Assembly (NCBI GenBank): GCA_963739325.1
Contig: CAVTZZ010000036.1
Location: 1,777 to 65,776 of the forward strand
Length of the DNA: 64,000 bases
Direction of reading: 5' to 3'
From: an uncultured delta proteobacterium
GTDB lineage: Bacteria; Desulfobacterota; BSN033; UBA1163
Below, piece by piece: positions 6,995 to 57,872 of this stretch. The position numbers were made by a program, and so were the translations under genes. Numbering within the stretch: position 1 is the stretch's first letter; each line of letters starts with the position of its first letter. Under the pieces are notes generated by a model. It made no database searches, was not told the origin of the DNA, and was given only the letters and a program-made list of their open reading frames with translations.

Positions 6995-7031
6995 TCTTCC
7001 TTAACTTCTCGATCATCGCCCTGAGATGCTA

Positions 7032-7060
7032 GTGTAATGTTACAGTAATATCTTTACAAC
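7032..7060. repeat. IS630 left terminal inverted repeat
   Basis: GTGTAATGTTACAGTAATATCTTTACAAC compared with the reverse complement of the right end, GTGTAGTGTTACAGTAACGGCTTTACAAC. Confidence 0.85.
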
Positions 7061-7076
7061 TATCGAGTTTCGTGTT

Positions 7077-8172
7077 ATGCATGGGTTCATGTGGAACCCA
7101 GCCGAAAAATTGTCCATAACGGAAGAGGAGCTCAAGACCCTGAAAGCCTGGGTTACGGCCAAAACTAGTCCCCAACGGACCGTTTTGCGTGCGCGCATCT
7201 GCCTGTTGGCTGCGGAGGGTTTGCCCAACAGGGCCATTGCCAAAGCCTTGAAGACCAGTCGTCCGACAGTTGTGCAATGGCGCAAGCGGTTTGAAGAACG
7301 AGGCTCGCAGGGGCTGGCAGAAGATGCCCCCCACGGCCTGAGTTCCCGCGCCCTGCCCGCTGATAAGGTCAAGGCGATTGTGGAGGCTACTTTGCATACG
7401 ACGCCTCCTGATGCGACTCACTGGTCTACGCGGACGATGGCCGAAGCCATGGGCGTCAGCAACGCCACAGTCTCTCGGATTTGGGATGCGCACGGGCTGC
7501 AACCGCACCGCGTGGAAGGGTTTAAGCTTTCGAAGGATAAACGGTTTGTGGAAAAGTTGACGGACGTGGTGGGGGTATACCTGAACCCACCGGACAAGGC
7601 CGTCGTTCTGTGCGTGGATGAGAAATCGCAGGTGCAGGCTCTGGACCGGACGCAGCCCGGATTGCCGATGAAGAAAGGGCGTTGTGGGACGATGACGCAC
7701 GATTACAAACGCAACGGGACCACTTGCCTGTTTGCGGCATTGAATGTGCTGGAGGGGAAGGTCATCGGCTCTTGTTATCCACGGCATCGGAACATCGAAT
7801 TCCGAAAAATTTCTGCGACAGATCGACCGTGAAACCCCCAAAGACTTGGCCATCCATATGGTTCTGGACAACTACGGCACGCACAATCACCCCAAGGTCA
7901 GGGCATGGTTGCAAAAGCATCCCCGCTTTCATTGCCACTTCACCCCGACTTCCTCCTCGTGGCTGAATCTCGTTGAACGGTGGTTTGGGGAGATCACTCG
8001 TAAACGTATTCGGCGTGGTGTGTTCAGAAGTGTATCGGATCTGGTGTCTGCCATTGAAGAGTTTATCCGAGTGAACAACGCAAATCCAAAACCATTCGTG
8101 TGGACGAAAAACGTGGACGCAATCTTGGAAAAGGTCGCACGTTGTAAAGCCGTTACTGTAACACTACACTAG
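7077..8172 (+). CDS. IS630-family DDE transposase, encoded in two overlapping frames (7077-7832 and 7744-8172) joined by a +1 shift at an A5 run (7805-7809)
   Basis: The N-terminal HTH region, CVDEKSQ (first D), MVLDNYGTHNHPKV (second D) and SSWLNLVERWFGE (E) are all present. Skipping one A gives RHRNIEFRKFLRQIDRETPKD, which fits the family pattern RHR..EF..FL..ID. Confidence 0.88.
8141..8169. repeat. IS630 right terminal inverted repeat
   Basis: GTTGTAAAGCCGTTACTGTAACACTACAC followed by TA-G. Confidence 0.85.
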
Positions 8173-43438: not shown

Positions 43439-45574
43439 CTACTTCTTTTTGGCCAACTGTTTGATCGCTTCATCCAATCGATTATTTGCAAATTCTAATA
43501 ACTCTTCTGTATATTCGAGGTTATGGACGCCTTTCCCATTCTTCGCCAGATTATAATTAAATTCTGCCTCTCCAAACAATTTCCGATAGACAAAAGTATG
43601 TCCTCTTCGGCGATCAATCTTCTCTATCTCTTCACGGACACGATCGATCTTAGGGGCCACCTTCTTCAATAAATCCTCAGTAACCGTTTTCCACCGGACG
43701 ACCATCTCCCCATAACTCTGGTCATGACATTCGATACAACGTTTCTTAATCGCATCGAAGGTGTCCCTCTTTTTGCTACTTATACCACGATGACAATCGA
43801 TACATTCAACAACATCGAGCTTATTGCTCGGTCTCTCTTTAACACCAATGCCTCCCTTTCCCTGAACCAGTCTTTTAACAGAGACATGGCAGTCTTCACA
43901 TTTGACTTTCTTTCCCACTTTTCCATGATGGCATTCTGCACAATTCTTCTGAAATGTCTTTCCGTGGTTTTCGCGTGGGGAATGGCAGTCGGAACATCTC
44001 ATCCCGTGGCCTGCTACATGGGTGTCATGGGAAAATTTAGTATCGTTGAAGGGAACGGTCCGCCTCTCCATTCCAACATGGCAGAGGGATGTACAGGTTA
44101 AATGAGTCTTGAACTCCCGAGACTTGTAACCTTTATCGATTGCCGCCAGAGCTTGTTCGGTCTTATTATTAGCCGCATTGAGGAGTTTGAAGGCATATTC
44201 AATGTTATGAGTGCCTTTACCCAACAGGACAAAGCTGTAATTGTGGCGTGCCTCATTGAGAAGGTTTTGGGCTTTTTTGAACTCCGTGGCCTCCCCTTTA
44301 TTTCTCTCAAGATCGTATAACATCTTCTGAACATTAAAGATCCGTTGATCGGTCTCATTCTGCGCTTTTGAAAGAAGGGCTTTCCAATGTTTCAAGGTAT
44401 CATCAAACCCTTCACCATGGCAATCCACACAGGCTTTCCCGATTGCCATTTCCATATATTTTGTGGTATGAAGTGCAGCCTGACTCTCTTCACCCTTTCG
44501 ATGGCAGGCGATACAGTCGACGTTGGTGATAAACATCAGACTGGGAGAGTCAGGAACTCCAATCCCCCCTCTCCCACGGTATAACTCTCCTGGCCCCAAA
44601 TGGGTCTCCTGGCTATGGCACTTATCACAACTCGATGGGGCAGGATGAATAGTTGGAATCGTCCCAATCTCATGTCGGAGCGGGGTGTGGCAATCGGTGC
44701 ATTCGATCTTATGGTCAGTGACATGATTCTTGTGCATGAATTGAGAGGTATACTTGGTGCTCAGTATCTCTGGTTCATTATGACACTGGACACATTTTCC
44801 TTCCGGAACATGTCCATCCCCTTGAACAACACTAAGATGGCATTTCTCACAGGTAACCCCTCTTTCAATATACTTCCGATGATTGAAACTCCATCCATCA
44901 ATTTTAATATCTCCTTGTGGTGCGAAGTGACAAGAGGTGCAACTCCCTACAGCACATGAAAGGCACTCCCCTTCCCCTTTGGGACCAGCCTTGTAGTAGT
45001 GGCAGATGAAACAGTTGGTTTCATGAACGGTGAGGTGCACTCCCTGAACGAGCTGGGCGTGACAGGAGGTGCATCGAAGTTCCATCCCCCTTCTCAACTC
45101 ACCTAAATGTTTTCTGTGTGAGAATGCAACATTCTTATAAATCATATCCTTTTGTAGATCATCGACCCTGTGACAACCTTTTTGGAGGCAACTCGCATCA
45201 CTGATCTCTGCATGGGGCCTCTCTGGCGTCTTGCCAGAAATGAAATAAGCTACTGATACCTGGCCATCCACCCATTTGCCCTTCAGATGATTGAAAAAAC
45301 CAGGCTCATAGTGACATTTCGTACAGTTCACATGCTTATGACTTGAGGCCCTCCATGATGCCATATAAGTATTCATCTGGTGGCAAAGGCCACAAAAGGT
45401 TGGACTCTCTGAAAATTTAAGTAAAACTGCAGAGATAACAAGAAAGGAAATGATGCAGAAAACAAGTAAGACCTTTATTGCTTTTAGGTGGGTTTGGGTC
45501 CCTCTCTTTAACGCTTTAAAAAAATCGATCCAAAGGATTTTGACTAAATGATAATAATTTTTCAATTTCTCCAT
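43439..45574 (-). CDS. Membrane-anchored multihaem cytochrome c, NapC/NirT-type N-terminus, 16 CxxCH + CX4CH + CX3CH (paralogue B)
   Basis: 711 aa. One TM helix, then SPTFCGLCH...CTKCH. I counted 16 canonical CxxCH, plus CLQKGCH and CTSLCH. Two internal helical modules end in GxHNxEY. Confidence 0.9.
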   Translation of the reverse strand: MEKLKNYYHLVKILWIDFFKALKRGTQTHLKAIKVLLVFCIISFLVISAVLLKFSESPTFCGLCHQMNTYMASWRASSHKHVNCTKCHYEPGFFNHLKGKWVDGQVSVAYFISGKTPERPHAEISDASCLQKGCHRVDDLQKDMIYKNVAFSHRKHLGELRRGMELRCTSCHAQLVQGVHLTVHETNCFICHYYKAGPKGEGECLSCAVGSCTSCHFAPQGDIKIDGWSFNHRKYIERGVTCEKCHLSVVQGDGHVPEGKCVQCHNEPEILSTKYTSQFMHKNHVTDHKIECTDCHTPLRHEIGTIPTIHPAPSSCDKCHSQETHLGPGELYRGRGGIGVPDSPSLMFITNVDCIACHRKGEESQAALHTTKYMEMAIGKACVDCHGEGFDDTLKHWKALLSKAQNETDQRIFNVQKMLYDLERNKGEATEFKKAQNLLNEARHNYSFVLLGKGTHNIEYAFKLLNAANNKTEQALAAIDKGYKSREFKTHLTCTSLCHVGMERRTVPFNDTKFSHDTHVAGHGMRCSDCHSPRENHGKTFQKNCAECHHGKVGKKVKCEDCHVSVKRLVQGKGGIGVKERPSNKLDVVECIDCHRGISSKKRDTFDAIKKRCIECHDQSYGEMVVRWKTVTEDLLKKVAPKIDRVREEIEKIDRRRGHTFVYRKLFGEAEFNYNLAKNGKGVHNLEYTEELLEFANNRLDEAIKQLAKKK

Positions 45575-45667
45575 AAAACATACTTGCTCCAGACAAATAT
45601 TTTAACGACTTTTTATAAATGATCCCATGGAGTATTTCAAGTTGAATAGGGATTATAATTTGGAGAG

Positions 45668-47764
45668 CTACTTCTTTTTGGCCAACTCTTTGATAGCCTC
45701 ATCCAATCGATGATTAGCAAACTCCAATAATTCTTCTGTATATTCCAGGTTATGGACGCCTTTCCCATTCTTAGCTAAATTGTAATTAAATTCTGCCTCT
45801 CCGAATAATTTCCGGTAGACAAAAGTATGTCCTCTCCGGTGATCAATTTTTTCTATCTCTTCCCTGACACGATCGATTTTAGGGACCACCCTCTTTAATA
45901 AATCCTCAGAGGCCGTTTTCCACCGGACGACCATCTCACCATAACTCTGGTCATGGCATTCGATACAACGTTTCTTAATCGCATCGAATGGGTCTCTCTT
46001 TTTGGCACTCACGCCACGATGGCAATCGATACATTCGACCACATCGAGCTTATTGCTTGGCTTCTCCTTGACGCCGATGCCCCCTTTCCCTTGAACCAAT
46101 CTTTTGACCGAGACATGGCAGTCTTCGCATTTGACCTTTTTGATCTCCTTCCCGTGATGGCATTCAGCACAATTCTTCATAAACGTTTTGCCATGATTTT
46201 CACGGGGAGCATGACAGTCAGAACACTTCAGCCCTTTGCCTGCACTGTGGGTTTCATGAGAAAATTTGATGTCGTTAAAAGGGACGGTCCGCTTCTCTAT
46301 CCCAACATGGCAGAGGGTCGTACAGGTCATCTGGGTTTGAAATTCCTTTGGCTTATAATTTTTGTCGATAGCCGCGAGAGCCTGTTCAGTCTTATTGTTC
46401 GTCGCATTGAGGAGTTTGAATGCATATTCGATATTGTGAACGCCCTTCCCCAAAAGAACAAAGTTGTAATTGTGACGGGCTTCGTTGAGAAGATTTTGGG
46501 CCTTTTTGAACTCCGCGGACCCCCCTTTATTCTTCTCAAAATTGTATAACACCTTCTGAACATTAAAGATCCGTTGATCAGTCTCATTCTGTGCTTTTGA
46601 AAGGAGCGCCTTCCAATGCTTCAGTGTATCATCGTATCCCTCACCATGACAGTCCACACAGGCTTCCCCTATCGCCCTTTCAACATATTGGGTGGTATGG
46701 AGAGCAGCTTCACTCTCCTCACCCGTTCGATGGCAGGCAATACAATCCACATTCGTCGTAAACATAAGGCTTGGGGAGTCAGGAACTCCAATCCCCCCAC
46801 TCCCGCGGTATAACTCTCTCGGCCCCAAATGGATTTCCTTACTGTGGCACTTGTCACAATGGGTGGGAGAATGAACAAAGGTGAGAATCGGTCCGATCTC
46901 ATGACGAATGTAAGTGTGGCAATCTGCGCATTCGATCTTGTGGTCGGTGACATGATTCTTATGCATGAATTGAGAAGTGTATTTGGGGCTTAGTCCTTCA
47001 GGTTCCTTATGGCACTGGAGACACTTTCCTTCAGGGACATGGCCATCCCCTTTAACGACATTGATATGACACTTTTCACATGCCACCCCTCTTGCAATAT
47101 ATTTCCGATGATTGAAGCTCCAGCCTTTGACATTAATATCCCCTTTGGGCTCAATGTGGCAAGATGAACAATCACCTACGGCACACGAAATGCACTCTTC
47201 TTCCCCTCTTGGACCAGCTTGATAGAAGTGACAGACAAAACAGTTAGTTTCGTGAACAGTGAGATGGGCTCCCTGGACGAGCTGAGCATGGCAGGTGGTA
47301 CACCGGAGTTTCATTCCTCTCCTCAACTCGCCCAGATGTTTCCCATGGGGAAAGTTTACATTCTTAAATATCATATCCCTTTTTAGGTCTTCGCTTTTAT
47401 GACACCCTTTTTGCAAACAATTACCATCATCAATTTCATAATGGAGTTTCTTTATGCCTTTCCCGATAATGATATAAGTCAATGCGAGTTGGAGATCTTC
47501 CTTTTTTCCTTTGAGATGATTCAAAATACCTGGCCTGCGGTGACAACTGAGGCAGGCCACTTCATTGTGCGAGGAGGTTTCCCAAGACTCGACATATTCC
47601 TTCATATTGTGACATAGGCCACAAAATGATGGGCTTTCTGAATATTTAAAAATTCCTGCAAAAAATACTAACAAAAGCAAAAAAAGAAGGCCATAAAGAG
47701 CCTTCTTTTTACCTTTATAAAACCATTGCATTATCCTAAGTGGAAGGCTTAATAAAGGATTCAT
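45668..47764 (-). CDS. Membrane-anchored multihaem cytochrome c, NapC/NirT-type N-terminus, 16 CxxCH + CX4CH + CX3CH (paralogue A)
   Basis: Same architecture as 43439-45574. The start is placed at MNPLLSL (47764) because the longer ORF (to 47821) would overlap the upstream gene. Confidence 0.9.
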   Translation of the reverse strand: MNPLLSLPLRIMQWFYKGKKKALYGLLFLLLLVFFAGIFKYSESPSFCGLCHNMKEYVESWETSSHNEVACLSCHRRPGILNHLKGKKEDLQLALTYIIIGKGIKKLHYEIDDGNCLQKGCHKSEDLKRDMIFKNVNFPHGKHLGELRRGMKLRCTTCHAQLVQGAHLTVHETNCFVCHFYQAGPRGEEECISCAVGDCSSCHIEPKGDINVKGWSFNHRKYIARGVACEKCHINVVKGDGHVPEGKCLQCHKEPEGLSPKYTSQFMHKNHVTDHKIECADCHTYIRHEIGPILTFVHSPTHCDKCHSKEIHLGPRELYRGSGGIGVPDSPSLMFTTNVDCIACHRTGEESEAALHTTQYVERAIGEACVDCHGEGYDDTLKHWKALLSKAQNETDQRIFNVQKVLYNFEKNKGGSAEFKKAQNLLNEARHNYNFVLLGKGVHNIEYAFKLLNATNNKTEQALAAIDKNYKPKEFQTQMTCTTLCHVGIEKRTVPFNDIKFSHETHSAGKGLKCSDCHAPRENHGKTFMKNCAECHHGKEIKKVKCEDCHVSVKRLVQGKGGIGVKEKPSNKLDVVECIDCHRGVSAKKRDPFDAIKKRCIECHDQSYGEMVVRWKTASEDLLKRVVPKIDRVREEIEKIDHRRGHTFVYRKLFGEAEFNYNLAKNGKGVHNLEYTEELLEFANHRLDEAIKELAKKK

Positions 47765-47784
47765 CTTAAGTTTTTTGTAAAAAA

Positions 47785-48366
47785 TTAAGAGGAGGATTTC
47801 ACTGGGATCTTCGTATGGCATTTCATGCAGGATTCAGGTCCTCCTTGAATCGCCTCTTCATGGCACTCGATACAGGTTAATCTGCGGGGCCGGTTCGTTC
47901 CGGCTTCCATTTTTTCGTGTGCGATATTTCTATGACAATCGATGCATTTCAGCTTTGATTCTTCGACATGGAGCTTATGGGCGATCTTCATATGGTGAGT
48001 TTCTTCTATCTCTTTCCCCGCCACATGTTTATGACAAACAAGGCAATTATCATTGACTTTCTCATCGGCGTAAAAATCTCGGGGAAACAATTGACCGGGT
48101 CTTGCATGACAATTCACACAGGTCACACGGACAGGATGAGTGGCAGAGCGCGACCACATGGAGATACTGCTCTGTCTTGCATGACATGAAAGACAGATCG
48201 TCGGATGGGCAGTCAACGTGTGCCCCACCCAGATCACCAAGATGACTCCTATCAGAGTGAGGATGGGGCCGACACCAAAAATAACCCATTTTGATTTCAA
48301 TAGGAGCATGATGTTTTTGACGTTTATCGTCGACATCAACCATTTTCTCATACTCAATACTTTCAT
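47785..48366 (-). CDS. Membrane-anchored hexahaem cytochrome c (NapC/NirT/NrfH-like)
   Basis: 193 aa. TM helix, then six CxxCH (CLSCH, CVNCH, CLVCH, CIDCH, CIECH, CMKCH). Confidence 0.85.
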   Translation of the reverse strand: MKVLSMRKWLMSTINVKNIMLLLKSKWVIFGVGPILTLIGVILVIWVGHTLTAHPTICLSCHARQSSISMWSRSATHPVRVTCVNCHARPGQLFPRDFYADEKVNDNCLVCHKHVAGKEIEETHHMKIAHKLHVEESKLKCIDCHRNIAHEKMEAGTNRPRRLTCIECHEEAIQGGPESCMKCHTKIPVKSSS

Positions 48367-48378
48367 CGACTCATTCCC

Positions 48379-50634
48379 TTACGCCTTCGAAATTATGACC
48401 AAAGTATCGTTCCAGGCCTCTCCACCACCAATTGGGTCTGAATTTCCCGAGATGATGTGATTGGGTGAGATGCCATTCCCTTCTTTTTCCCACCAGACTA
48501 AATTGGTGTTAGGATCCTTACTCTTGAATCTTTTGGCGCGAGCAATATGTCCATATCCCCAATGACCGAAATTTCTTTCGATAGCGACTACTCTTGGGTG
48601 GATGCCAAAGGTTAAACGAGCATCCGTCACAAACGATCCGGTTTTTGTAGAAATTTTAATACGATCTCCTTCTTCAATATGAAGCTGTCTAGCAACATCC
48701 TTATTGAGCCAAACAGGATTTTGATGTTTGATCTCGGCCAGCCATCGAAAATTTCCTGTTCTTGGTCCCATCACATTCGGTTCAAAAGTCACGAGGACGA
48801 ACTTACCTTTAAGATCTCCATGATCTGGAATAGGTTCATAGGTGGGAAGAGGTTGAAATCCTTTCCTTCTCAAAGTCTCTGAATAAATCTCAATCTTTTT
48901 CGAAGGGGTGTTAAACCCTTTCGACTCATACGATTTGTATCTGGGTTTTACATTGGGATCGAACCAGACTCCATTCTCTTTTAAGTATTTGAAACCCCCC
49001 GCTTTTTCCAATTTCTCAATTCCTGAGGCGACCTTCTTGATATACTCTTCTGTGGAATTGAACTTGAAGTATCGCGGTAGGCTTCCACCGATCCTGTGAG
49101 CAAGCTCTATACAAATATCTGAGATCGGGACAGATTTGCCAAACGGGGGCACGATGGGCTGCTGGAGTCCAATAAAAGGAATCAAGTCCAACGCGGGAGA
49201 TGAATCGATCCTCCAGCTCTCCAAGTAGGTGGCAGTGGGGAGGACGATGTCAGCTAATGCAGCCGTTTCGGTCATATAGTTATCTGCAACCACAATATAG
49301 GGAACCAACTTTTCATTCTTCAATACTTCAGAGGTCAACCCGCTCTCAGGGTTTTTATAAGCAGGATTGGATTCATAAACGAAATAAAATTGGGGGGTTA
49401 ACTTTCCACGTTTCACCATGGAGATAAACTTCTGTGGAGTGACCCTGATCTTTTCCAAATCGAAGGCCTTCTCTTTTTGGGGAGATGGCTTTAAGTCTGG
49501 TTCTTCAAGACGGTAAGCCTTAGGAAGACAATATCCCCCTAGGCTGTCAATACCTCCTACAAGGGTATTCAAAAGGAAGATACACCTTTCATTATAGACT
49601 CCGTTCAAATGGCTACTGACACCACGGCCCGAAATGGCTACAGCAGGCATCGAGAGAGCAAATTCCTTGGCAATCCTTTCGATATCCGATGCGGCAACCC
49701 CGCTTGTCTTCTCCGCCATCTCAGGAGTAAACTGAGATAAGTGCTGTTCGATTGAAGAGATAGGGGTATTCGTCCACTTTTGGATAAAATCTTTATTGTG
49801 AAGATTAGCCTTGACGATGACATGGGCCATAGCCAAGGCTACGACTCCATCGGTTCCCGGGCTGATCGGAAACCATTCCTCGCTATTACCAGCTGTATAG
49901 GATAGCCTCACATCAAAAGTCACTAGCTTGGCCTTCTTTTGCATCCGGCCTTCAATCAATCTTCCTATGAAACCTGTGTAATATTCGTGTGTCTCGTAAA
50001 AATTGGAGCCGAAGTTGAGGATATAATGACTATTCGCTACATCAGGGACTCCCCTTTCCTCCCCCCAGGTAAGCCGTTGACCCCAGTCCCTATTACCAAA
50101 GTTGAGGCTATCCTCATTGAGGATGAGGGTTTTACCAAAGGCTTCCAAGAACCGCTCTATGATGCCATCAGGCTCGTGTTCTGATTGGAAGACGAAGTCC
50201 TCCCTCTTTCCGCTCTGATATATTGCTTTCAATCTGGACGCGATTTCACTATATGCCTTCTCCCAAGAGATCTTCTCCCATTGCCCTTTTCCTCTTTCTC
50301 CCTTCCTGATCAATGGAGAGGTCATTCGATCCGGATCATACGCCATATTCACGGCGGCCAGACCTCTGGCACATAATTTTCCGAGATTGTTGGGATGTTT
50401 TGGATTCCCTCCAATCTTCACCAGCTGATCGCCCTCTAAAAAACCGATGATTCCGCAATGGGCAGGACAAAGTTGGCAGATGCTTGAAATCCCTTTCAGG
50501 GGCTTCCCCGTATGTCGCGATACCTGTTTTCCTCCAAACACCTCCTTGGCATAGGCAGAGAGCCCAAGATAATGCTGGAACAGGAATACCTGCATGCTGA
50601 CCAGACAAAATTTCAAAAAATCGCGACGAATCAT
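48379..50634 (-). CDS. Tat-exported molybdopterin (bis-MGD) oxidoreductase catalytic subunit, Psr/Phs/Ttr/Arr-like; substrate unknown
   Basis: 751 aa. Twin-arginine MIRRDFLKF. N-terminal FS0 motif C-X2-C-X3-C-X27-C (CQLCPAHC...KLC). MopB-type domains and a C-terminal barrel. Confidence 0.88.
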   Translation of the reverse strand: MIRRDFLKFCLVSMQVFLFQHYLGLSAYAKEVFGGKQVSRHTGKPLKGISSICQLCPAHCGIIGFLEGDQLVKIGGNPKHPNNLGKLCARGLAAVNMAYDPDRMTSPLIRKGERGKGQWEKISWEKAYSEIASRLKAIYQSGKREDFVFQSEHEPDGIIERFLEAFGKTLILNEDSLNFGNRDWGQRLTWGEERGVPDVANSHYILNFGSNFYETHEYYTGFIGRLIEGRMQKKAKLVTFDVRLSYTAGNSEEWFPISPGTDGVVALAMAHVIVKANLHNKDFIQKWTNTPISSIEQHLSQFTPEMAEKTSGVAASDIERIAKEFALSMPAVAISGRGVSSHLNGVYNERCIFLLNTLVGGIDSLGGYCLPKAYRLEEPDLKPSPQKEKAFDLEKIRVTPQKFISMVKRGKLTPQFYFVYESNPAYKNPESGLTSEVLKNEKLVPYIVVADNYMTETAALADIVLPTATYLESWRIDSSPALDLIPFIGLQQPIVPPFGKSVPISDICIELAHRIGGSLPRYFKFNSTEEYIKKVASGIEKLEKAGGFKYLKENGVWFDPNVKPRYKSYESKGFNTPSKKIEIYSETLRRKGFQPLPTYEPIPDHGDLKGKFVLVTFEPNVMGPRTGNFRWLAEIKHQNPVWLNKDVARQLHIEEGDRIKISTKTGSFVTDARLTFGIHPRVVAIERNFGHWGYGHIARAKRFKSKDPNTNLVWWEKEGNGISPNHIISGNSDPIGGGEAWNDTLVIISKA

Positions 50635-50650
50635 ATCGTTTCTCCTCCCC

Positions 50651-51565
50651 TCAACTCAAAGGAACGTATTGCCCGCCGAAAACCATCACATATCTCATGA
50701 TGAATACGCCGATGGAGGCCAATATAGCAGCAATCAATAATAAGAGAAGAGATTTCCGTGTCCTCTTAAAAATAATGATGATGGAAGGGACAATGTTCCC
50801 CAAGACATTATCTACCCAGATGTATAAGAAGCTGAATTTACCAAGACGGACAAGCTCCACCGTCTCAAAGGCATCCTCAGTATGGTAATACATCACGGTG
50901 AGGTCAGAAAACACATAGAAGACATTTAGAATCATGAACCCTGCCATCCATTTTGCAAGGAGATCGATGATATTGAGATCCTTCTCCCTCTGCTCCAGGG
51001 TTTTATCGTTATATGTGAAACGGTAACGAATCAACGCTACGATGAGCATAAAGGCCATCCCGGAAATCATTGCCGAGGCCAAGAAGTAAGAAGGCATAAC
51101 AGCGGTGTTCCATAAGACCCTGGCTTTGGCGAATCCTAAGACGAAACCTGTATATCCGTGAACACCAATAGCAGTAGGGAGGCTGATGACTCCGAAAATT
51201 TTTGACCATTTCACATTGTTTTTAAATAAAAAGTAGATATAGATCCCTGTGAAGGTGGGGTAAGCGCAAAGGATGAAAGTTCCCCAACTGAGGGGCGAAG
51301 TGGGATTGAAGTGGAGGAAGAGATACCAGAAACGTAAGGGTTGAAAAAGATCGGTTAAAAGAAAGATAGGGGATATGGAAAAGAGGATGATGACAAATAT
51401 GGCTCCGATCTTCGCCACCGGTTTATATTCATTTTTTCCAAGTAAGGTGGCAGTAATCGACACGATGGAACACCCGGCATGGAGTCCAACGATGTGAAAG
51501 TAGATGGCAATCAACATGCTGACCGCTTCATAATGGAATACATTGTAGAGAACTTGTACTTCCAT
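50651..51565 (-). CDS. NrfD/PsrC-family integral membrane quinone-interacting subunit
   Basis: 304 aa, about 8 TM helices, located between the FeS and molybdopterin subunits. Confidence 0.82.
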   Translation of the reverse strand: MEVQVLYNVFHYEAVSMLIAIYFHIVGLHAGCSIVSITATLLGKNEYKPVAKIGAIFVIILFSISPIFLLTDLFQPLRFWYLFLHFNPTSPLSWGTFILCAYPTFTGIYIYFLFKNNVKWSKIFGVISLPTAIGVHGYTGFVLGFAKARVLWNTAVMPSYFLASAMISGMAFMLIVALIRYRFTYNDKTLEQREKDLNIIDLLAKWMAGFMILNVFYVFSDLTVMYYHTEDAFETVELVRLGKFSFLYIWVDNVLGNIVPSIIIIFKRTRKSLLLLLIAAILASIGVFIMRYVMVFGGQYVPLS

Positions 51566-51582
51566 AATTTTCCCTTTTTCAA

Positions 51583-52275
51583 TTATAATTTTTCATATTC
51601 CGGATGGTAGTAGTGTTTTTCCCATCCTTTTAGCGGATCAGCCACATCCTTGTCCAGGCCAATATAATAGACATTTGGATAGGTAGCCATTTCTTTTTTA
51701 AGAACTTGGACTTTCTCCTTTGAAAGCAGTTGAGACACTTTACTGCTCGGATCCTTCAAATTCCCAAATACCATTGCATTGGTTGGACAGGTCTCCACAC
51801 AGGCCGGTAGAAGTCCAGAATCAACCCGATGAACACAGAAGTCACACTTCTGGATCATACCGGTAATTGGGTTCGCGAATCTCACATTATAAGGACACGC
51901 CGCTCTACAATAGTTACAACCGATACAGCGGTGAGGATCAATCAAAACAATACCATCTTCTTTCCGCTTATAGGCAGCCCCTACTGGACATACAGTATTA
52001 CAGATAGGTCGATCGCAATGGTTACACAGCCACGGCAGGAAAAGAACAGACATTCGAGGGTACCTCGCTTCTTCGGGACGCTCACAGTATGCGCAATCCC
52101 AGGGCAATTTAAGGGTAGCCATTTCCGGGTACGTTCCTTTTTGAATGGTTTTCACCCAAATTCTCCAAACACCGAGAGGGGTCTCATGTTCAGCTTTACA
52201 CGCCACTTGGCAGGCAAAACATCCCACACAACGCTTGAGATCAATCACCATTCCCCATTTAACTTCTTTTTGCAT
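51583..52275 (-). CDS. 4Fe-4S ferredoxin-type electron-transfer subunit (PsrB/TtrB/NrfC-like)
   Basis: CVGCFACQVACK, CNHCDRPICNTVCPVGA, CIGCNYCRAACPYN, CDFCVHR...PACVETCPTNA. These are four cluster motifs. Confidence 0.9.
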   Translation of the reverse strand: MQKEVKWGMVIDLKRCVGCFACQVACKAEHETPLGVWRIWVKTIQKGTYPEMATLKLPWDCAYCERPEEARYPRMSVLFLPWLCNHCDRPICNTVCPVGAAYKRKEDGIVLIDPHRCIGCNYCRAACPYNVRFANPITGMIQKCDFCVHRVDSGLLPACVETCPTNAMVFGNLKDPSSKVSQLLSKEKVQVLKKEMATYPNVYYIGLDKDVADPLKGWEKHYYHPEYEKL

Positions 52276-53136: not shown

Positions 53137-53444
53137 CTTGCACCCGTCCCTTTCTGAAAAGGAAGATTCCTTTCTTGAATATTCCTAACCACGTCAATGA
53201 ACTAGGTTAATGTAGAGATAAACTTAACTTAGGTTACTTCTTCGAAAACCCCACCCTTATAAAATAATAACCTTCTATCACCTTTTTATTATTATTTCAA
53301 GAAAAAATATTTTTCCACAAACAAGAGACCGATTGACTTGATTTCAAACTTGAAACTTGGTAAATTTGAAATTAGAAAAATTGGAGGGGTTAGAGTTTTT
53401 ACTTTTTTTTGGTAATTCTTTCAAAGGTTTATATTGGAAGACTG

Positions 53445-54125
53445 ATGGACAAATATTTTTTATTTGATCGTAAATGGCTCCTATTGGGGATTTCAGGCTT
53501 TTGCCTCCTTCTTTTAGGGGGAAAGGCCGATCTTTTTCTCCCCAAAGAGGGAGAAGATCCAATGGAGCGGAGAGAAGAAAGATTAAAAGTATTTCGAGAA
53601 CATAAGGATCGGTTTTTTAAAGAAGACACTCACTCTCCGTTGAAGGAAACTGACCGAAAGAAATTTAAAGGTCTCCTTTACTACCCGATCAATCTTCGAT
53701 ATGCGATGACCGGACCCATTGAACGATATCCGACTGAACCCAAACCCACCTATGTCAGCCTCCCTACCAGTAAAGGAAGGGAAAAAAAATATGTGAAATA
53801 TGGTCGGTTCCGATTTAAATGGGAGGCGAAAGAATATGTACTCCAGATCTACCGGCCTTTGGGAGGTGGGGAACTTTTTCTCCCCTTCAAGGATAAAACT
53901 TCGGGAACGGATACCTATTTGGATGGTCGTTATCTCTTTATCGAACCAATCCCTGGAGGGTCGGAATCGACTCGTACCGAGAAGGTTCTGATCGATTTCA
54001 ATCGGGCCTATAATCCCTTCTGCGCCTACAATGAAAAATATACCTGCCCTTTTGCACCGAAGGAAAATTGGTTGGAGATTACTATTCCAGCAGGAGAGAA
54101 GCATTTCCCACTATCCAAAAAATAA
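53445..54125 (+). CDS. DUF1684-domain protein with signal/anchor sequence
   Basis: FKEDTHSPL, FKGLLYYPIN, YNPFCAYNEKYTCPFAPKENWL and IPAGEK are all DUF1684-typical. The start is placed at MDKYF. Confidence 0.78.
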   Translation: MDKYFLFDRKWLLLGISGFCLLLLGGKADLFLPKEGEDPMERREERLKVFREHKDRFFKEDTHSPLKETDRKKFKGLLYYPINLRYAMTGPIERYPTEPKPTYVSLPTSKGREKKYVKYGRFRFKWEAKEYVLQIYRPLGGGELFLPFKDKTSGTDTYLDGRYLFIEPIPGGSESTRTEKVLIDFNRAYNPFCAYNEKYTCPFAPKENWLEITIPAGEKHFPLSKK

Positions 54126-54179
54126 CTTTTCTTGATTTCATAATATCAATCTGGTAGATAAATCAAAGGTGGGGTTCCC

Positions 54180-55763
54180 TTGAAAATCAGAAGAGTTCCA
54201 ATCCTCTTGGTTGCGGTTCTGTTGATGGGTTTGTCTCAAACACCACTTGGTCAAACTGCACCCAAAGTCCAATTCAGTATCGTTTACACTAATGATGTAA
54301 TGGGTGAGGTCGAGCCCTGTGGGTGATTCAGGAGCCCTCTTGGTGGTATCGCCAAGAAATCGACTCTTATCTCCCAGATAAAAAAAGAGGGGAGAAAGAT
54401 CCTTCTCCTCGACACTGGAAACCTCCTCTTTCGAAAACTTCCTCAAACGGAAACCAAACGAAGAGATGCTCTTCTTCGTGTTGATCTCCTCCTTCAATCC
54501 TATAATGATATGGGATATGATGCGGTCAATGTGGGTGAGAAGGATTTGATGATGGGGCTAAAATTCCTCTCCGATCTGAGCCAAAAGGGCAAATTTCCAT
54601 TCATTTCAGCCAACCTTGTGGATAAAAAGACTCAGAAGGAAGTTTTCAAACCTTTTGTGATCAAAGAAATGGCTGGGCTGAAGATTGGGATTATTGGACT
54701 CCTGGATGACTTATACAACCCAACTCTTCAGGAAAAAGACCCTGGACTGATCATCTTAGAACCTCTATCGAGATCAAAAGCTCTGACTAAGAGCCTTAGG
54801 GAATATTGTGATGTGATCGTCGCCCTCTCCCAATTGGGCGAGTCAAAGGATAAAAAACTGGCCAGAGAAAATCACGAGATCGATCTGATTCTGGGAGGAG
54901 GGGGGGAATCCAAAAGGGCTGTCATTGAAAGGGTGAACGAAGTCCCCATTTATCGAATGGAACCAAGGGGAGGATATTTAGGTCGGATTGACTACTCCTT
55001 GGTCGATGCTAAAAAACCTGTCAAATTTATCATTACCAGTGAACGGGATGAGATGGAAAAGAGATTGGAAAGGTTGATCACCCGGTCAACACAACTTAAA
55101 TCAGAGATAGCGAAATCTGCGAAACAAGATGATATGAAGGTCAAGGAACTGAAGGTCTTGGAATCGAAACAGAAGGAATTGGAGAAGACCCTCTTGGCCT
55201 TCCAAGATAAAAATTTTTATAAACACATTTCGATCCCTGTCCAACTCTCTGTGAAGGACGATCCTAATATCATGAAGGGAGTGGAGATCTACCGAGCCGA
55301 ATCAGCAAAATTATACAAACCAAAAGTGGCGGCCCTGCCAGAAAAAGAGCTACCGGAGAAAGAGATGGTCGCCCGAATTCCTAAAGAGAGCCCTTTTATT
55401 GGAGCGATCTCTTGCAAACGATGCCACGAAACAAATTATCGAAATTGGCTGAAGACCAAGCATGCGAAGGCCTCCCAGACTATCGTCGCCTCTCCTAAAT
55501 ATGCCCAAGAGGAGTGTCTCATTTGCCACTCCACCGGTTATGGAAAGATGGGAGAATATGCCACAGTGGAAGAAATCCCTTTCTTCCTACGAGGGGTACA
55601 ATGTGAAGCCTGTCATGGGGAAGGAAAGGGACATCCTGGAAAGGGAGGAATTGAGAGAAAAGTTACCCTCGGCATCTGCCGAAACTGCCACACCAAAGAT
55701 CAGAGTCCTGTTTTTAATTACGTTGCCTATCTCGAAAAGATCGGTTGTAAAATCTCAAAATAA
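54180..55763 (+). CDS. Secreted degenerate metallophosphatase/5'-nucleotidase-like domain fused to a tetrahaem cytochrome c domain; in-frame TGA at 54324-54326 (candidate selenocysteine)
   Basis: TTG 54180 follows AGGTGGGG. The signal peptide is (M)KIRRVPILLVAVLLMGLSQTPLGQTA, followed by FSIVYTNDVMGEVEPCG-TGA-FRSPLGGIAKKSTLI. This is in the same frame as track ORF 54510-55763. The C-terminus carries CKRCH, CLICH, CEACH and CRNCH. Confidence 0.6.
54338..54357 (+). promoter_or_regulatory. SECIS-like hairpin downstream of the in-frame UGA
   Basis: UCUUGG-UGGUAUCG-CCAAGA starts 11 nt after the UGA, and its apical loop contains GGU. Flanking GAG/CUC could extend the stem across an internal loop. 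Confidence 0.35.
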
Positions 55764-55767
55764 AAAA

Positions 55768-55850
55768 GGGTTCAAGGATTCGAGTCATAGTCTAAGTGTT
55801 TCCTTTTAAGATTTTCACTCGAACCCTCGACCACTTGGCCCCTTGAATCC
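55768..55850. repeat. Stuttered hairpin locus 11, same word family as locus 10
   Basis: GGGTTCAAGGATTCGAGTC opposed to ACTCGAACCCTCGACCACTTGGCCCCTTGAATCC. Confidence 0.7.
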
Positions 55851-56009
55851 TTCCAATTTACTATCCAAGGAATTCCCACCCAATCAGGAAGACGCAGAGA
55901 AGCCCGATGGCCAGCATGGCAAATCCTACGACGGTTGAGAAAAGATCGGCCATTGCACTGGGATATTTATCCCTGATAGGTCTCCAATGTCTTCTCTGCC
56001 AACATACGC

Positions 56010-57836
56010 TTATACTGCTCCGATCCGTTCCTCCACCAGTTCATATTTGGGAAATCTTCCTGTGAAGATCACCGTATCGATCGGGAACTTCGAAGGCCGA
56101 AAATGGGTATTGAAGAAATGGACTGTAAAGATGAAGCCAGAGGCTAACAATGCCTCATCCGAATGGACGATCGTTGCAATATTGAGTATCCATCCTGGCA
56201 TGAAGATGGTGAAGAATTCCGGAAACCAGAGCATCAGTCCAGAAAGTCCGATGGCGAACATCCCCCAAAAGACAGCTAAAAAGTCGAACTTCTCCCAGTA
56301 GGTCCATCGATCAAACTGGGGTTTTGGCCCTTTGTTAAAGAACCATTGGATCATACCAATGATGTCTTGCACATCCTTCCAACGAGGGCAGAGAGAATCT
56401 GGACCAAAAAGTCGCTGGAGTGGATTGGGATTTCCTTTAATCTTTTTGAAGAAGAGGAAGTAGAAGATATAGGTGATAGTGCTGCCAAAATAGCCAAAGG
56501 TAATGGCTGCACAGATGCGATGGATTAATCCTGCCATTTTAGCCCCTCCCAGAAAATGCATCAACCCACTGGCCCAGGGCGCATGGGAGAATTTTAAAGG
56601 AAGCCCGGTGAGAACAAGACCGATGAAGGTGACCATCATGGTAAAGTGAATCACGATGTCGAAGGTACTAAATCGACGATAGATGTGACCCGCTTCATCC
56701 GGCCTCACATGTTGTGGGAAGAATATTCCTTTGGCCCTTAACTCCCTCTTCTCCCAGAAGTCTTTCCGCCACCAGAAAAAGGTATGGATCCAAAAGACTC
56801 CAAAGACAGAAACCAGGAGGCCAGTCATCAGAATGAAAGTCCCATAAAGGACTGGCTCCCGCTCTGGATCGGTATGGGTTGCATGTGCGAGCCACTGAAC
56901 GAAGTTGACATTGGCCCGTGGGTGGCACTTTCCACAGGTCTCTACCAACCGAGCCTCAGAGATAAGGGACTTTGGATTATCTGGAGGCAGAATGCTATGA
57001 AAACCATGGCAGTCCGCACAACCTGCCACCAATGAAGGATAGCCTAATTCCTCAACTTTTCCGTGGTAACTTTCATAATAGGTCTGGGTAGCAATGAGAA
57101 AAACCTTATTTCGTTCCATCATCTCGTTATCGGCATGGCACTTCTGACAGACCTCTGTATGAAACTCCTTCCGCAATGCCACCACTTTTGGCTCATCCCC
57201 CTTTAATATGGGAACCTTGTGAAGACCATGACAATCACTGCAGGTAGCAGAATCCGGGTTCCCAGCAAGGACAGATTTGCCATGGACGCTTTCAGAGTAA
57301 CCATCGTCGGAATGGCAAGTTGTGCATTTCTGGACCACTCGGGTTTTATCCCCTTTCCATGGGGTCATCTCATGGATATCTTGATGGCAGTCCTTACATT
57401 GAACATCGTTGATGAAGTGGGCGCTTGCATAATGTTCGGCCCCTTCCTTTTTATGACATCGATGGCAGGTAATTGGTTCGGCTTGGATTCTTGCCCCTTT
57501 TGCCTTCACATGGGTTTTGACGTCAGTAATGTCCCAGTGGCAACCGTTGCAGGAATTGGCTCCATGAACCGACTGTGCAAATTTCCTCTCGCTGATCTTA
57601 TTGTGGCACCCGAGACATTCCGAGTTGTCGATACACTCTAAACAATATTCTCGACCCTTAATAATAAATTTCTCCCCCTTTTTTCCGGGTTCGGGAGTTT
57701 TGGTCACCCCTTCCGGTTTAGGACTCTCTTTTTCAGCAACAGGATTTGCAGACCAAATTAATCCAAGGCTTAAAGATAGAAGAATACCAGAAATGATAAA
57801 AAAGATGAAAATTGAAATTTTAAACTTCGATTTCAT
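56010..57836 (-). CDS. CbcL-like fusion: periplasmic nonahaem cytochrome c domain + HydC/FdnI-type dihaem cytochrome b membrane domain
   Basis: A signal/anchor, then nine CxxCH, then IYRRFSTFDIVIHFTMMVTFIGLVLTGLP (the b-type cytochrome entry motif). Further TM helices carry conserved His residues (IHRICA, IVHSDEA, FTVHFFNTH). An alternative start lies at 57854. Confidence 0.82.
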   Translation of the reverse strand: MKSKFKISIFIFFIISGILLSLSLGLIWSANPVAEKESPKPEGVTKTPEPGKKGEKFIIKGREYCLECIDNSECLGCHNKISERKFAQSVHGANSCNGCHWDITDVKTHVKAKGARIQAEPITCHRCHKKEGAEHYASAHFINDVQCKDCHQDIHEMTPWKGDKTRVVQKCTTCHSDDGYSESVHGKSVLAGNPDSATCSDCHGLHKVPILKGDEPKVVALRKEFHTEVCQKCHADNEMMERNKVFLIATQTYYESYHGKVEELGYPSLVAGCADCHGFHSILPPDNPKSLISEARLVETCGKCHPRANVNFVQWLAHATHTDPEREPVLYGTFILMTGLLVSVFGVFWIHTFFWWRKDFWEKRELRAKGIFFPQHVRPDEAGHIYRRFSTFDIVIHFTMMVTFIGLVLTGLPLKFSHAPWASGLMHFLGGAKMAGLIHRICAAITFGYFGSTITYIFYFLFFKKIKGNPNPLQRLFGPDSLCPRWKDVQDIIGMIQWFFNKGPKPQFDRWTYWEKFDFLAVFWGMFAIGLSGLMLWFPEFFTIFMPGWILNIATIVHSDEALLASGFIFTVHFFNTHFRPSKFPIDTVIFTGRFPKYELVEERIGAV

Positions 57837-57872
57837 AATCCCCCCAAAATCCAAACTTGATTAATTACCAAT

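Follow-up and report, generated by a model that had tools for sequence, protein, structure and literature searches.

An in-frame UGA within the gene of a four-haem protein

The locus analysed here lies in a stretch of 64,000 nucleotides (the window) of contig CAVTZZ010000036.1 (assembly GCA_963739325.1, positions 1,777 to 65,776 of the forward strand) from an uncultured delta proteobacterium. On its + strand, a single reading frame extends from a TTG at 54180 to a TAA ending at 55763, i.e. 528 codons with a TGA at 54324-54326 as the sole interruption. We consider it very likely that this gene is the selenocysteine (Sec)-containing form of a protein family that is already catalogued, the UshA-like (seleno)proteins of the NCBIfam model NF041198. 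The coding sequence (54180..55763, +) would thus specify 527 residues followed by the stop, with the UGA at 54324-54326 as Sec48, as derived from translation and from the NF041198 match. A Shine-Dalgarno-like AGGTGGGG is directly read at 54167..54174 (+), leaving a 5-nt spacer before the TTG. The original prediction, made on the letters alone, had described a frame open upstream to this TTG save for one TGA, with four CxxCH motifs and a Cys placed two residues before the UGA (CxU); translation confirms each of these points.

The residues flanking the stop read FSIVYTNDVMGEVEPCG-stop-FRSPLGG, with the Cys codon at 54318-54320 providing the C-x-U spacing. The Cys-Gly-Sec motif (TGT GGG TGA; 54318..54326, +) is part of the family PCGU signature, and the EPCG-TGA segment as a whole occupies 54312-54326, directly after a degenerate motif I. 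A longer translation of the same frame gives MKIRRVPILLVAVLLMGLSQTPLGQTAPKVQFSIVYTNDVMGEVEPCG-stop-FRSPLGGIAKK and proceeds to the four CxxCH motifs toward its end (CKRCH, CLICH, CEACH and CRNCH). The N-terminus, MKIRRVPILLVAVLLMGLSQTPLGQ, displays by eye the layout of a signal peptide (MKIRR / VPILLVAVLLMGL / SQTPLGQ; 54180..54257, +), which fits the earlier proposal of such a peptide upstream of the UGA; full-length homologues likewise have hydrophobic N-termini, with a lipobox Cys in some of them. For annotation, the correct model spans 54180-55763 and has Sec at codon 48, in place of the 417-residue reading frame of the open reading frame (ORF) track.

The protein belongs to the NF041198 family

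We scored the full-length protein, with U replaced by C, against the NCBIfam models. NF041198 ('UshA_like_PCGU', UshA-like (seleno)protein) was matched with 487.7 bits for a curated cutoff of 275 (E = 3.8e-146), residues 11-514 of the protein aligning with profile positions 3-518 of 519. This match is nearly end to end, hence the curated model already covers the four-haem C-terminus. Besides the score, the window protein shares with the family the P-C-G-U/C motif and the association of a 5'-nucleotidase-like N-domain with a C-domain carrying multiple CxxCH motifs. A second UshA-related selenoprotein family, NF049981 (UshA-like (seleno)protein family 2), was also considered and rejected, the score being 57.1 bits against a cutoff of 140; it differs by its CxxU motif spacing (PMC13188914) and by a shorter model of 262 positions.

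The family has been in the literature for some time. A 'UshA-like protein, COG0737, CxU' was listed as a selenoprotein family by Zhang & Gladyshev (2008; PMC2398784), with 76 Sec and 92 Cys sequences in the selenoproteome table for Global Ocean Sampling (GOS), and the UshA-like CxU selenoprotein appears again in the catalogues PMC9312934 (2022) and PMC13188914 (2026), the latter naming NF041198. PMC9312934 also cites a Desulfurivibrio alkaliphilus protein (WP_013162925.1), from a cultivable carrier of NF041198. In so far as it announced a new selenoprotein family whose architecture had not been described, the original prediction therefore does not hold, given the full-length match to NF041198 and a listing that dates back to 2008: the gene is a known selenoprotein, correctly recognised, and not a new family. 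Compared with NF041198, which holds both Sec and Cys forms, the window protein has the PCGU motif with UGA at the family Sec position, the 5'-nucleotidase-like N-domain and the four-haem C-domain, and no difference emerged among the tested features; it is a further member, found in an uncultured Thermodesulfobacteriota/Syntrophaceae-like genome. Literature searches returned no description of a biochemical function for the UshA-like PCGU family, and the 2007 paper on the Olavius symbionts does not mention it. The gene adds a member to a catalogued selenoprotein family, and none of the observations reported here alters existing knowledge of selenoproteins.

The TGA is conserved and pairs with Cys in homologues

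Scanning species-representative genomes, we obtained 29 loci, 24 of which are close relatives from metagenome-assembled genomes of Thermodesulfobacteriota/Syntrophaceae (~68-80% identical). All 24 carry TGA at the site. Around it, the codons vary synonymously: the adjacent Cys is encoded by TGC in 14 loci and by TGT in 10, and the Gly codon varies between GGG, GGC, GGT and GGA. Over the 17 codons upstream of the TGA, variable columns number 6, 1 and 16 at the first, second and third codon positions, respectively, a pattern indicating that this segment is under protein-coding selection in this frame. The coding continuity through the stop that had been proposed is thus well supported, all the more as the first β-strand and motif I of the N-domain are encoded there.

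TGA is also found at the same site in four distant members, ~26-30% identical (loci L030, L033, L034 and L035), whereas the site reads PCGC, PCSC or NCGC in nearly all distant full-length members that we checked. Two further loci have a Cys codon at the UGA position (TGC in L026, TGT in L036), and one distant representative, P0226, has a Trp (PCGW), as if the UGA had been translated as Trp. The search for the Sec/Cys pairing typical of selenoproteins, suggested together with the prediction, was therefore positive, with Cys aligned to the UGA in nearly all full-length distant homologues and TGA kept in the close ones. In many other representatives, the first residues are precisely the (M/L)GGL next after the site, the trace left by gene calling that the TGA has halted, and N-terminally shortened calls of 413-471 aa account for 119 of the 120 best database homologues. 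The family is therefore systematically mis-annotated in metagenome-derived protein sets, because gene callers stop at the Sec codon.

Two kinds of homologue depart from the PCGU/PCGC pattern. The sole full-length call among the 120 closest homologues (protein P0001, locus L032:65-1672, Joint Genome Institute (JGI) metagenome 3300051196) has TGT GAA CGA (PCER) in place of the motif, together with a third haem motif altered to CEARH (TGT to CGT); this copy looks like a recently decaying or error-laden one. Two intact homologues, ~63% identical (L020:91-165 and L021:3100-3174), keep all four CxxCH motifs and have PSGR (TCC GGT CGA) replacing PCGU; the hairpin described below is gone from both, and other genes (Fe-S and NrfD-like) are found downstream of them. 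Some members may thus work without the Cys/Sec centre, or have adopted a new role.

A SECIS-type hairpin follows the UGA

The original prediction placed a hairpin resembling a selenocysteine insertion sequence (SECIS) 11 nt after the UGA, and our analysis bears this out. The hairpin (54338..54357, +), located within the coding sequence, is made of an 8-bp stem (UCUUGGUG at 54338-54345 paired with CGCCAAGA at 54350-54357) closed by a GUAU loop, and starts 11 nt past the UGA, a gap equal to the spacing reported for the minimal fdhF element. Its free energy is −10.1 kcal/mol, and the 68-nt hairpin context is more stable than each of 200 shuffled sequences (z-score of −3.2). Like the E. coli fdhF-type SECIS and the bacterial SECIS (bSECIS) consensus, it is a stem-loop situated in the coding sequence right after the UGA, with a small apical loop starting with G then U and a spacing within 16-37 nt; it differs from the fdhF element by an unrelated sequence and by its minimal 8-bp form devoid of a bulged U, which is not covered by an Rfam model. 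The published bSECIS constraints are a loop of 3-9 nt, a stem of 4-16 bp, a G in the two leading loop positions and then G or U, a distance of 16-37 nt from the UGA and a free energy of at most −7.5 kcal/mol (PMC13188914). The values found here are a 4-nt loop beginning with GU, 8 bp, 19 nt from the UGA to the loop and −10.1 kcal/mol, all within these bounds.

To gauge chance occurrence, we considered all 2,606 TGA trinucleotides of the window on both strands: 32 of them are followed by a perfect bSECIS-compliant hairpin at ≤ −7.5 kcal/mol, and just 6 by a hairpin as good as that at 54338-54357. Only the TGA at 54324 combines the hairpin with coding continuity across the stop; a scan of the window for other convincing genes with an in-frame TGA yielded ordinary gene ends only.

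The hairpin is tied to the TGA forms of the gene. It was found in 24/24 close TGA loci, with free energies ranging from −8.2 to −12.0 kcal/mol, and is missing in the Cys forms (L026, L036) and in the Arg forms (L020, L021), even though the GG-containing peptide encoded there is similar or identical. Across the 22 aligned loci, the Leu CTT and Lys AAG codons that build the stem never vary (22/22), the remaining stem changes being wobble-compatible only. In L020 and L021, the corresponding Leu and Lys codons are TTA and AAA. Among the distant TGA members, L033 keeps the register of the helix with another sequence (GAUGGGGG/UCCCCGUC), four pairs being changed on both sides, and in L030, L034 and L035 the register of the helix is shifted by one base and the loop is GGUCU.

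Reading of the UGA and alternative explanations

In standard bacterial recoding, the SECIS hairpin recruits SelB bound to Sec-tRNA(Sec). By analogy with this established mechanism, the hairpin at 54338-54357, with its apical loop 19 nt past the UGA, would act as a bacterial SECIS so that the UGA is not read as a stop; it would recruit SelB-GTP-Sec-tRNA(Sec), and selenocysteine would be inserted as residue 48. Judging from the comparison of sequences, the UGA at 54324-54326 almost certainly codes for selenocysteine. The proposal that it is read as Sec, yielding one exported protein (~527 residues) that has a CxU pair, with a SECIS downstream, is backed by the Sec/Cys pairing, by the conservation of the TGA and by the hairpin analysis.

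Several results weigh against this interpretation or its functional extension. Pfam searches on ~40 ORFs of the 64-kb window gave no selA, selB or selD, and ARAGORN found only a tRNA-Ala there, with no tRNA-Sec. No Rfam family matches the hairpin: whether the whole window was searched at the gathering threshold or 54280-54420 at a permissive E-value, hits remained at chance level. Within the close clade, no double compensatory change was found in the stem (covariation was compared with a shuffle control and is uninformative alone), and the covariation support amounts to one distant sequence together with synonymous-site conservation and four non-Sec genes devoid of the hairpin. L032 has CGA at the Sec site and nevertheless retains the hairpin. 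The L020 and L021 proteins keep their haems with PSGR at the site; hence not every member depends on the Cys/Sec pair. Finally, the wiring of the redox centre to the haems, discussed below, is something that we infer. As to the Sec machinery, its presence is suggested by the TGA conserved across 28 genomes and by the affiliation of the related genomes to the Thermodesulfobacteriota, which are among the phyla richest in selenoprotein genes (PMC13188914).

Three other explanations of the interrupted frame have to be weighed. The TGA could be a nonsense mutation in a pseudogene, or a sequencing or assembly error, i.e. a misread TGC or TGT in a gene that normally encodes Cys; Cys forms of the family do exist, and the L032/P0001 copy, in which the site reads CGA and a haem motif is broken, tells that damaged or erroneous copies occur among close homologues. 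A lesion or an error would nevertheless have to be shared by 24/24 independent close assemblies and by four distant members, with synonymous variation in the flanking codons, a downstream frame that is intact and conserved, and a hairpin co-conserved after the TGA. Such conservation across genomes effectively refutes this explanation, to which we give almost no credence. Equally improbable to us is a locus with two products, a 48-residue peptide ending at the TGA and a haem protein starting downstream, for instance at the ATG 54510 of the ORF track. Gene callers do annotate nearly every homologue in this manner (413-471 aa), but the called starts differ between homologues (413, 417, 461, 465 and 471 aa), suggesting that the gene callers chose them arbitrarily, and the segment 54327-54509 that would be left out is conserved as protein. 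Moreover, a protein starting at 54510 would have no signal peptide, though periplasmic haem attachment is needed, and its fold would be deprived of β-strand 1, motif I and helix 1, whereas the full-length Cys forms are single proteins.

The UGA could also be read through, or be reassigned, to a residue other than Sec, for instance Trp or Gly (as in genetic codes 4 and 25), or by near-cognate suppression. The Trp found at the site in the distant P0226 and the failure to find Sec machinery within the window are in line with this possibility. On the other hand, TGA is the stop of 11/44 annotated genes of the window, from which it follows that the genetic code is not reassigned; the homologous residue is Cys, neither Trp nor Gly; the SECIS-type hairpin is specifically linked to the TGA forms; and the related genomes belong to the selenoprotein-rich phylum named above. 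We thus regard decoding as a residue other than Sec as very improbable, and retain insertion of selenocysteine at codon 48.

The N-domain has a 5'-nucleotidase fold and lacks the metal ligands

The domain composition was examined with profiles and with an AlphaFold model of P0001, an 82%-identical homologue (mean predicted local distance difference test (pLDDT) of 85.6, predicted template modelling score (pTM) of 0.82). When the family profile was compared with the PDB, it matched 5'-nucleotidases (E ~1e-34), SoxB (E = 1e-20) and cytochrome c554 (1bvb, E = 2e-22), and Foldseek with the P0001 model returned E. coli UshA as the top match (1oie, 1ush; E = 4e-22). The N-domain (54267..55004, +) hence has a 5'-nucleotidase (metallophosphoesterase-like) fold. 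Pfam recognised only the C-terminal Cytochrome_C554 domain in the protein, its Metallophos model giving no match. The calcineurin-like domain announced in the original prediction thus stands as a fold of the 5'-nucleotidase/UshA/SoxB type, according to NCBIfam, the PDB profile comparison and the fold search, and fails as a match to the Pfam Metallophos model. In both the structural model and the alignment, the first β-strand (FSIVYTND) and motif I precede the UGA, and consequently the N-domain cannot form without readthrough of the stop. The Cys-Gly-Sec motif falls in the loop before helix 1 (GGIAKKSTLISQIK).

A long helical hairpin is predicted between the two domains (55035..55190, +; helices 294-321 and 326-345 of P0001, mapped by an 8-residue offset), and is followed by the four-haem c-type cytochrome domain (55413..55691, +), with CxxCH at residues 412-416, 446-450, 475-479 and 500-504. 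The latter matches PF13435 (Cytochrome_C554) with E = 7e-14 and 52.9 bits, for a gathering threshold of 20.8. In the family alignment, the invariant columns are almost wholly haem motifs (all four CxxCH), plus two histidines outside them. The one feature of the N-domain maintained throughout the family is the Cys-x-Cys/Sec pair, present in nearly all full-length members and sited in the loop that comes straight after the former metal-binding motif I.

The motifs that hold the two metals in 5'-nucleotidases are degenerate. Relative to the snake-venom enzyme (5h7w), the family consensus changes DxH to Dxl, GD to Gn, GNHE to Gek, H to s and GGH to ggg, and the window protein has NDVM, TGN, GEKD, SQ and GGGG at the corresponding positions. 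With the His/Asn ligands of the two-metal site lost, phosphoesterase activity is very unlikely, and we rejected a functional 5'-nucleotidase given the absence of the DxH, GD, GNH(D/E), H and GH motifs. Overall, the window protein resembles E. coli UshA, CD73, the periplasmic 5'-nucleotidases and SoxB in its N-domain fold and in its export, and differs from UshA, CD73 and SoxB in that the His/Asn ligands are replaced, a Cys-Gly-Sec motif stands after motif I, and the nucleotide-binding C-domain is exchanged for the helical hairpin and the four-haem cytochrome.

Genomic neighbourhood and possible function

Just upstream of the gene and on the same strand lies a DUF1684 gene (53409..54125, +; PF07920, E = 8.5e-42), a conserved neighbour; most related loci have a match at this place, as a rule in the same orientation. 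The two genes are possibly co-transcribed; that no promoter-like site was found between them is weak evidence for it, the promoter and terminator scan of 53200-56100 having given nothing beyond the shuffled expectation. Downstream, a convergent gene (56010..57854, −) encodes, according to Pfam, a fusion of a multihaem c-type cytochrome with a membrane domain of the cytochrome b561 type (Ni_hydr_CYTB). This fusion was present beside the gene in 21/23 close TGA-carrying loci returned by tblastn, with 81-94% identity; across related loci it is better conserved than the selenoprotein itself and nearly always convergent. We take it to resemble the CbcL-type quinol-linked cytochromes of Geobacter.

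A respiratory cluster is also present upstream on the opposite strand (43439-52275, −). It comprises three multihaem cytochromes with NapC/NirT-like N-termini, a PhsA/Psr-like molybdopterin oxidoreductase (48379-50634, −), an NrfD-like membrane subunit (50651-51565, −) and a 4Fe-4S subunit (51583-52275, −). The neighbourhood as a whole fits a respiratory role.

From these features, a possible pathway may be drawn. The product would be exported to the periplasm, where four c-type haems would be attached to its cytochrome c554-like C-domain. The Cys-Gly-Sec centre may have taken over the former active-site region and may communicate with the four haems; by way of these, it could be linked to the neighbouring electron-transfer chain, i.e. 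the cytochrome b/multihaem fusion and the PhsA/Psr-like molybdoenzyme with its Fe-S and NrfD-like subunits. We lean slightly toward the Cys-x-Cys/Sec pair being a redox or ligand-binding active centre that exchanges electrons with the four haems. More tentatively, and with clearly lower probability, the family, this protein included, might represent an uncharacterised kind of periplasmic respiratory enzyme, in which a Cys-Gly-Sec centre has supplanted the ancestral two-metal phosphoesterase site and is wired by the four haems to the conserved quinol-linked cytochrome b/multihaem module nearby, and the substrate is possibly a sulfur, selenium or metal species; if this were true, the chemistry would be new, though the selenoprotein is known. 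The lost metal ligands, the steady cytochrome b/multihaem fusion neighbour and the natural variants without Cys and Sec may help toward assigning a function to the family.

Other features of the window

Three minor observations were made elsewhere in the window. Within the respiratory cluster, the multihaem cytochrome ORFs at 47785-48366 (−) and 45668-47821 (−) overlap by 37 nt, which could reflect a gene split by a frameshift, perhaps one of those suspected in the original prediction, or a genuine overlap. The ORF at 7077-7832 (+) matches HTH_23, HTH_32 and HTH_29, domains typical of transposases, and is overlapped by a long antisense ORF (7029-7871, −); it may be the remnant of a mobile element. 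Lastly, the LpxK ORF (594-1349, +) aligns with positions 91-325 only of the 328 of the Pfam profile, ~90 N-terminal residues being missing, and a frameshift or a misplaced start upstream is a possible cause of this shortening.

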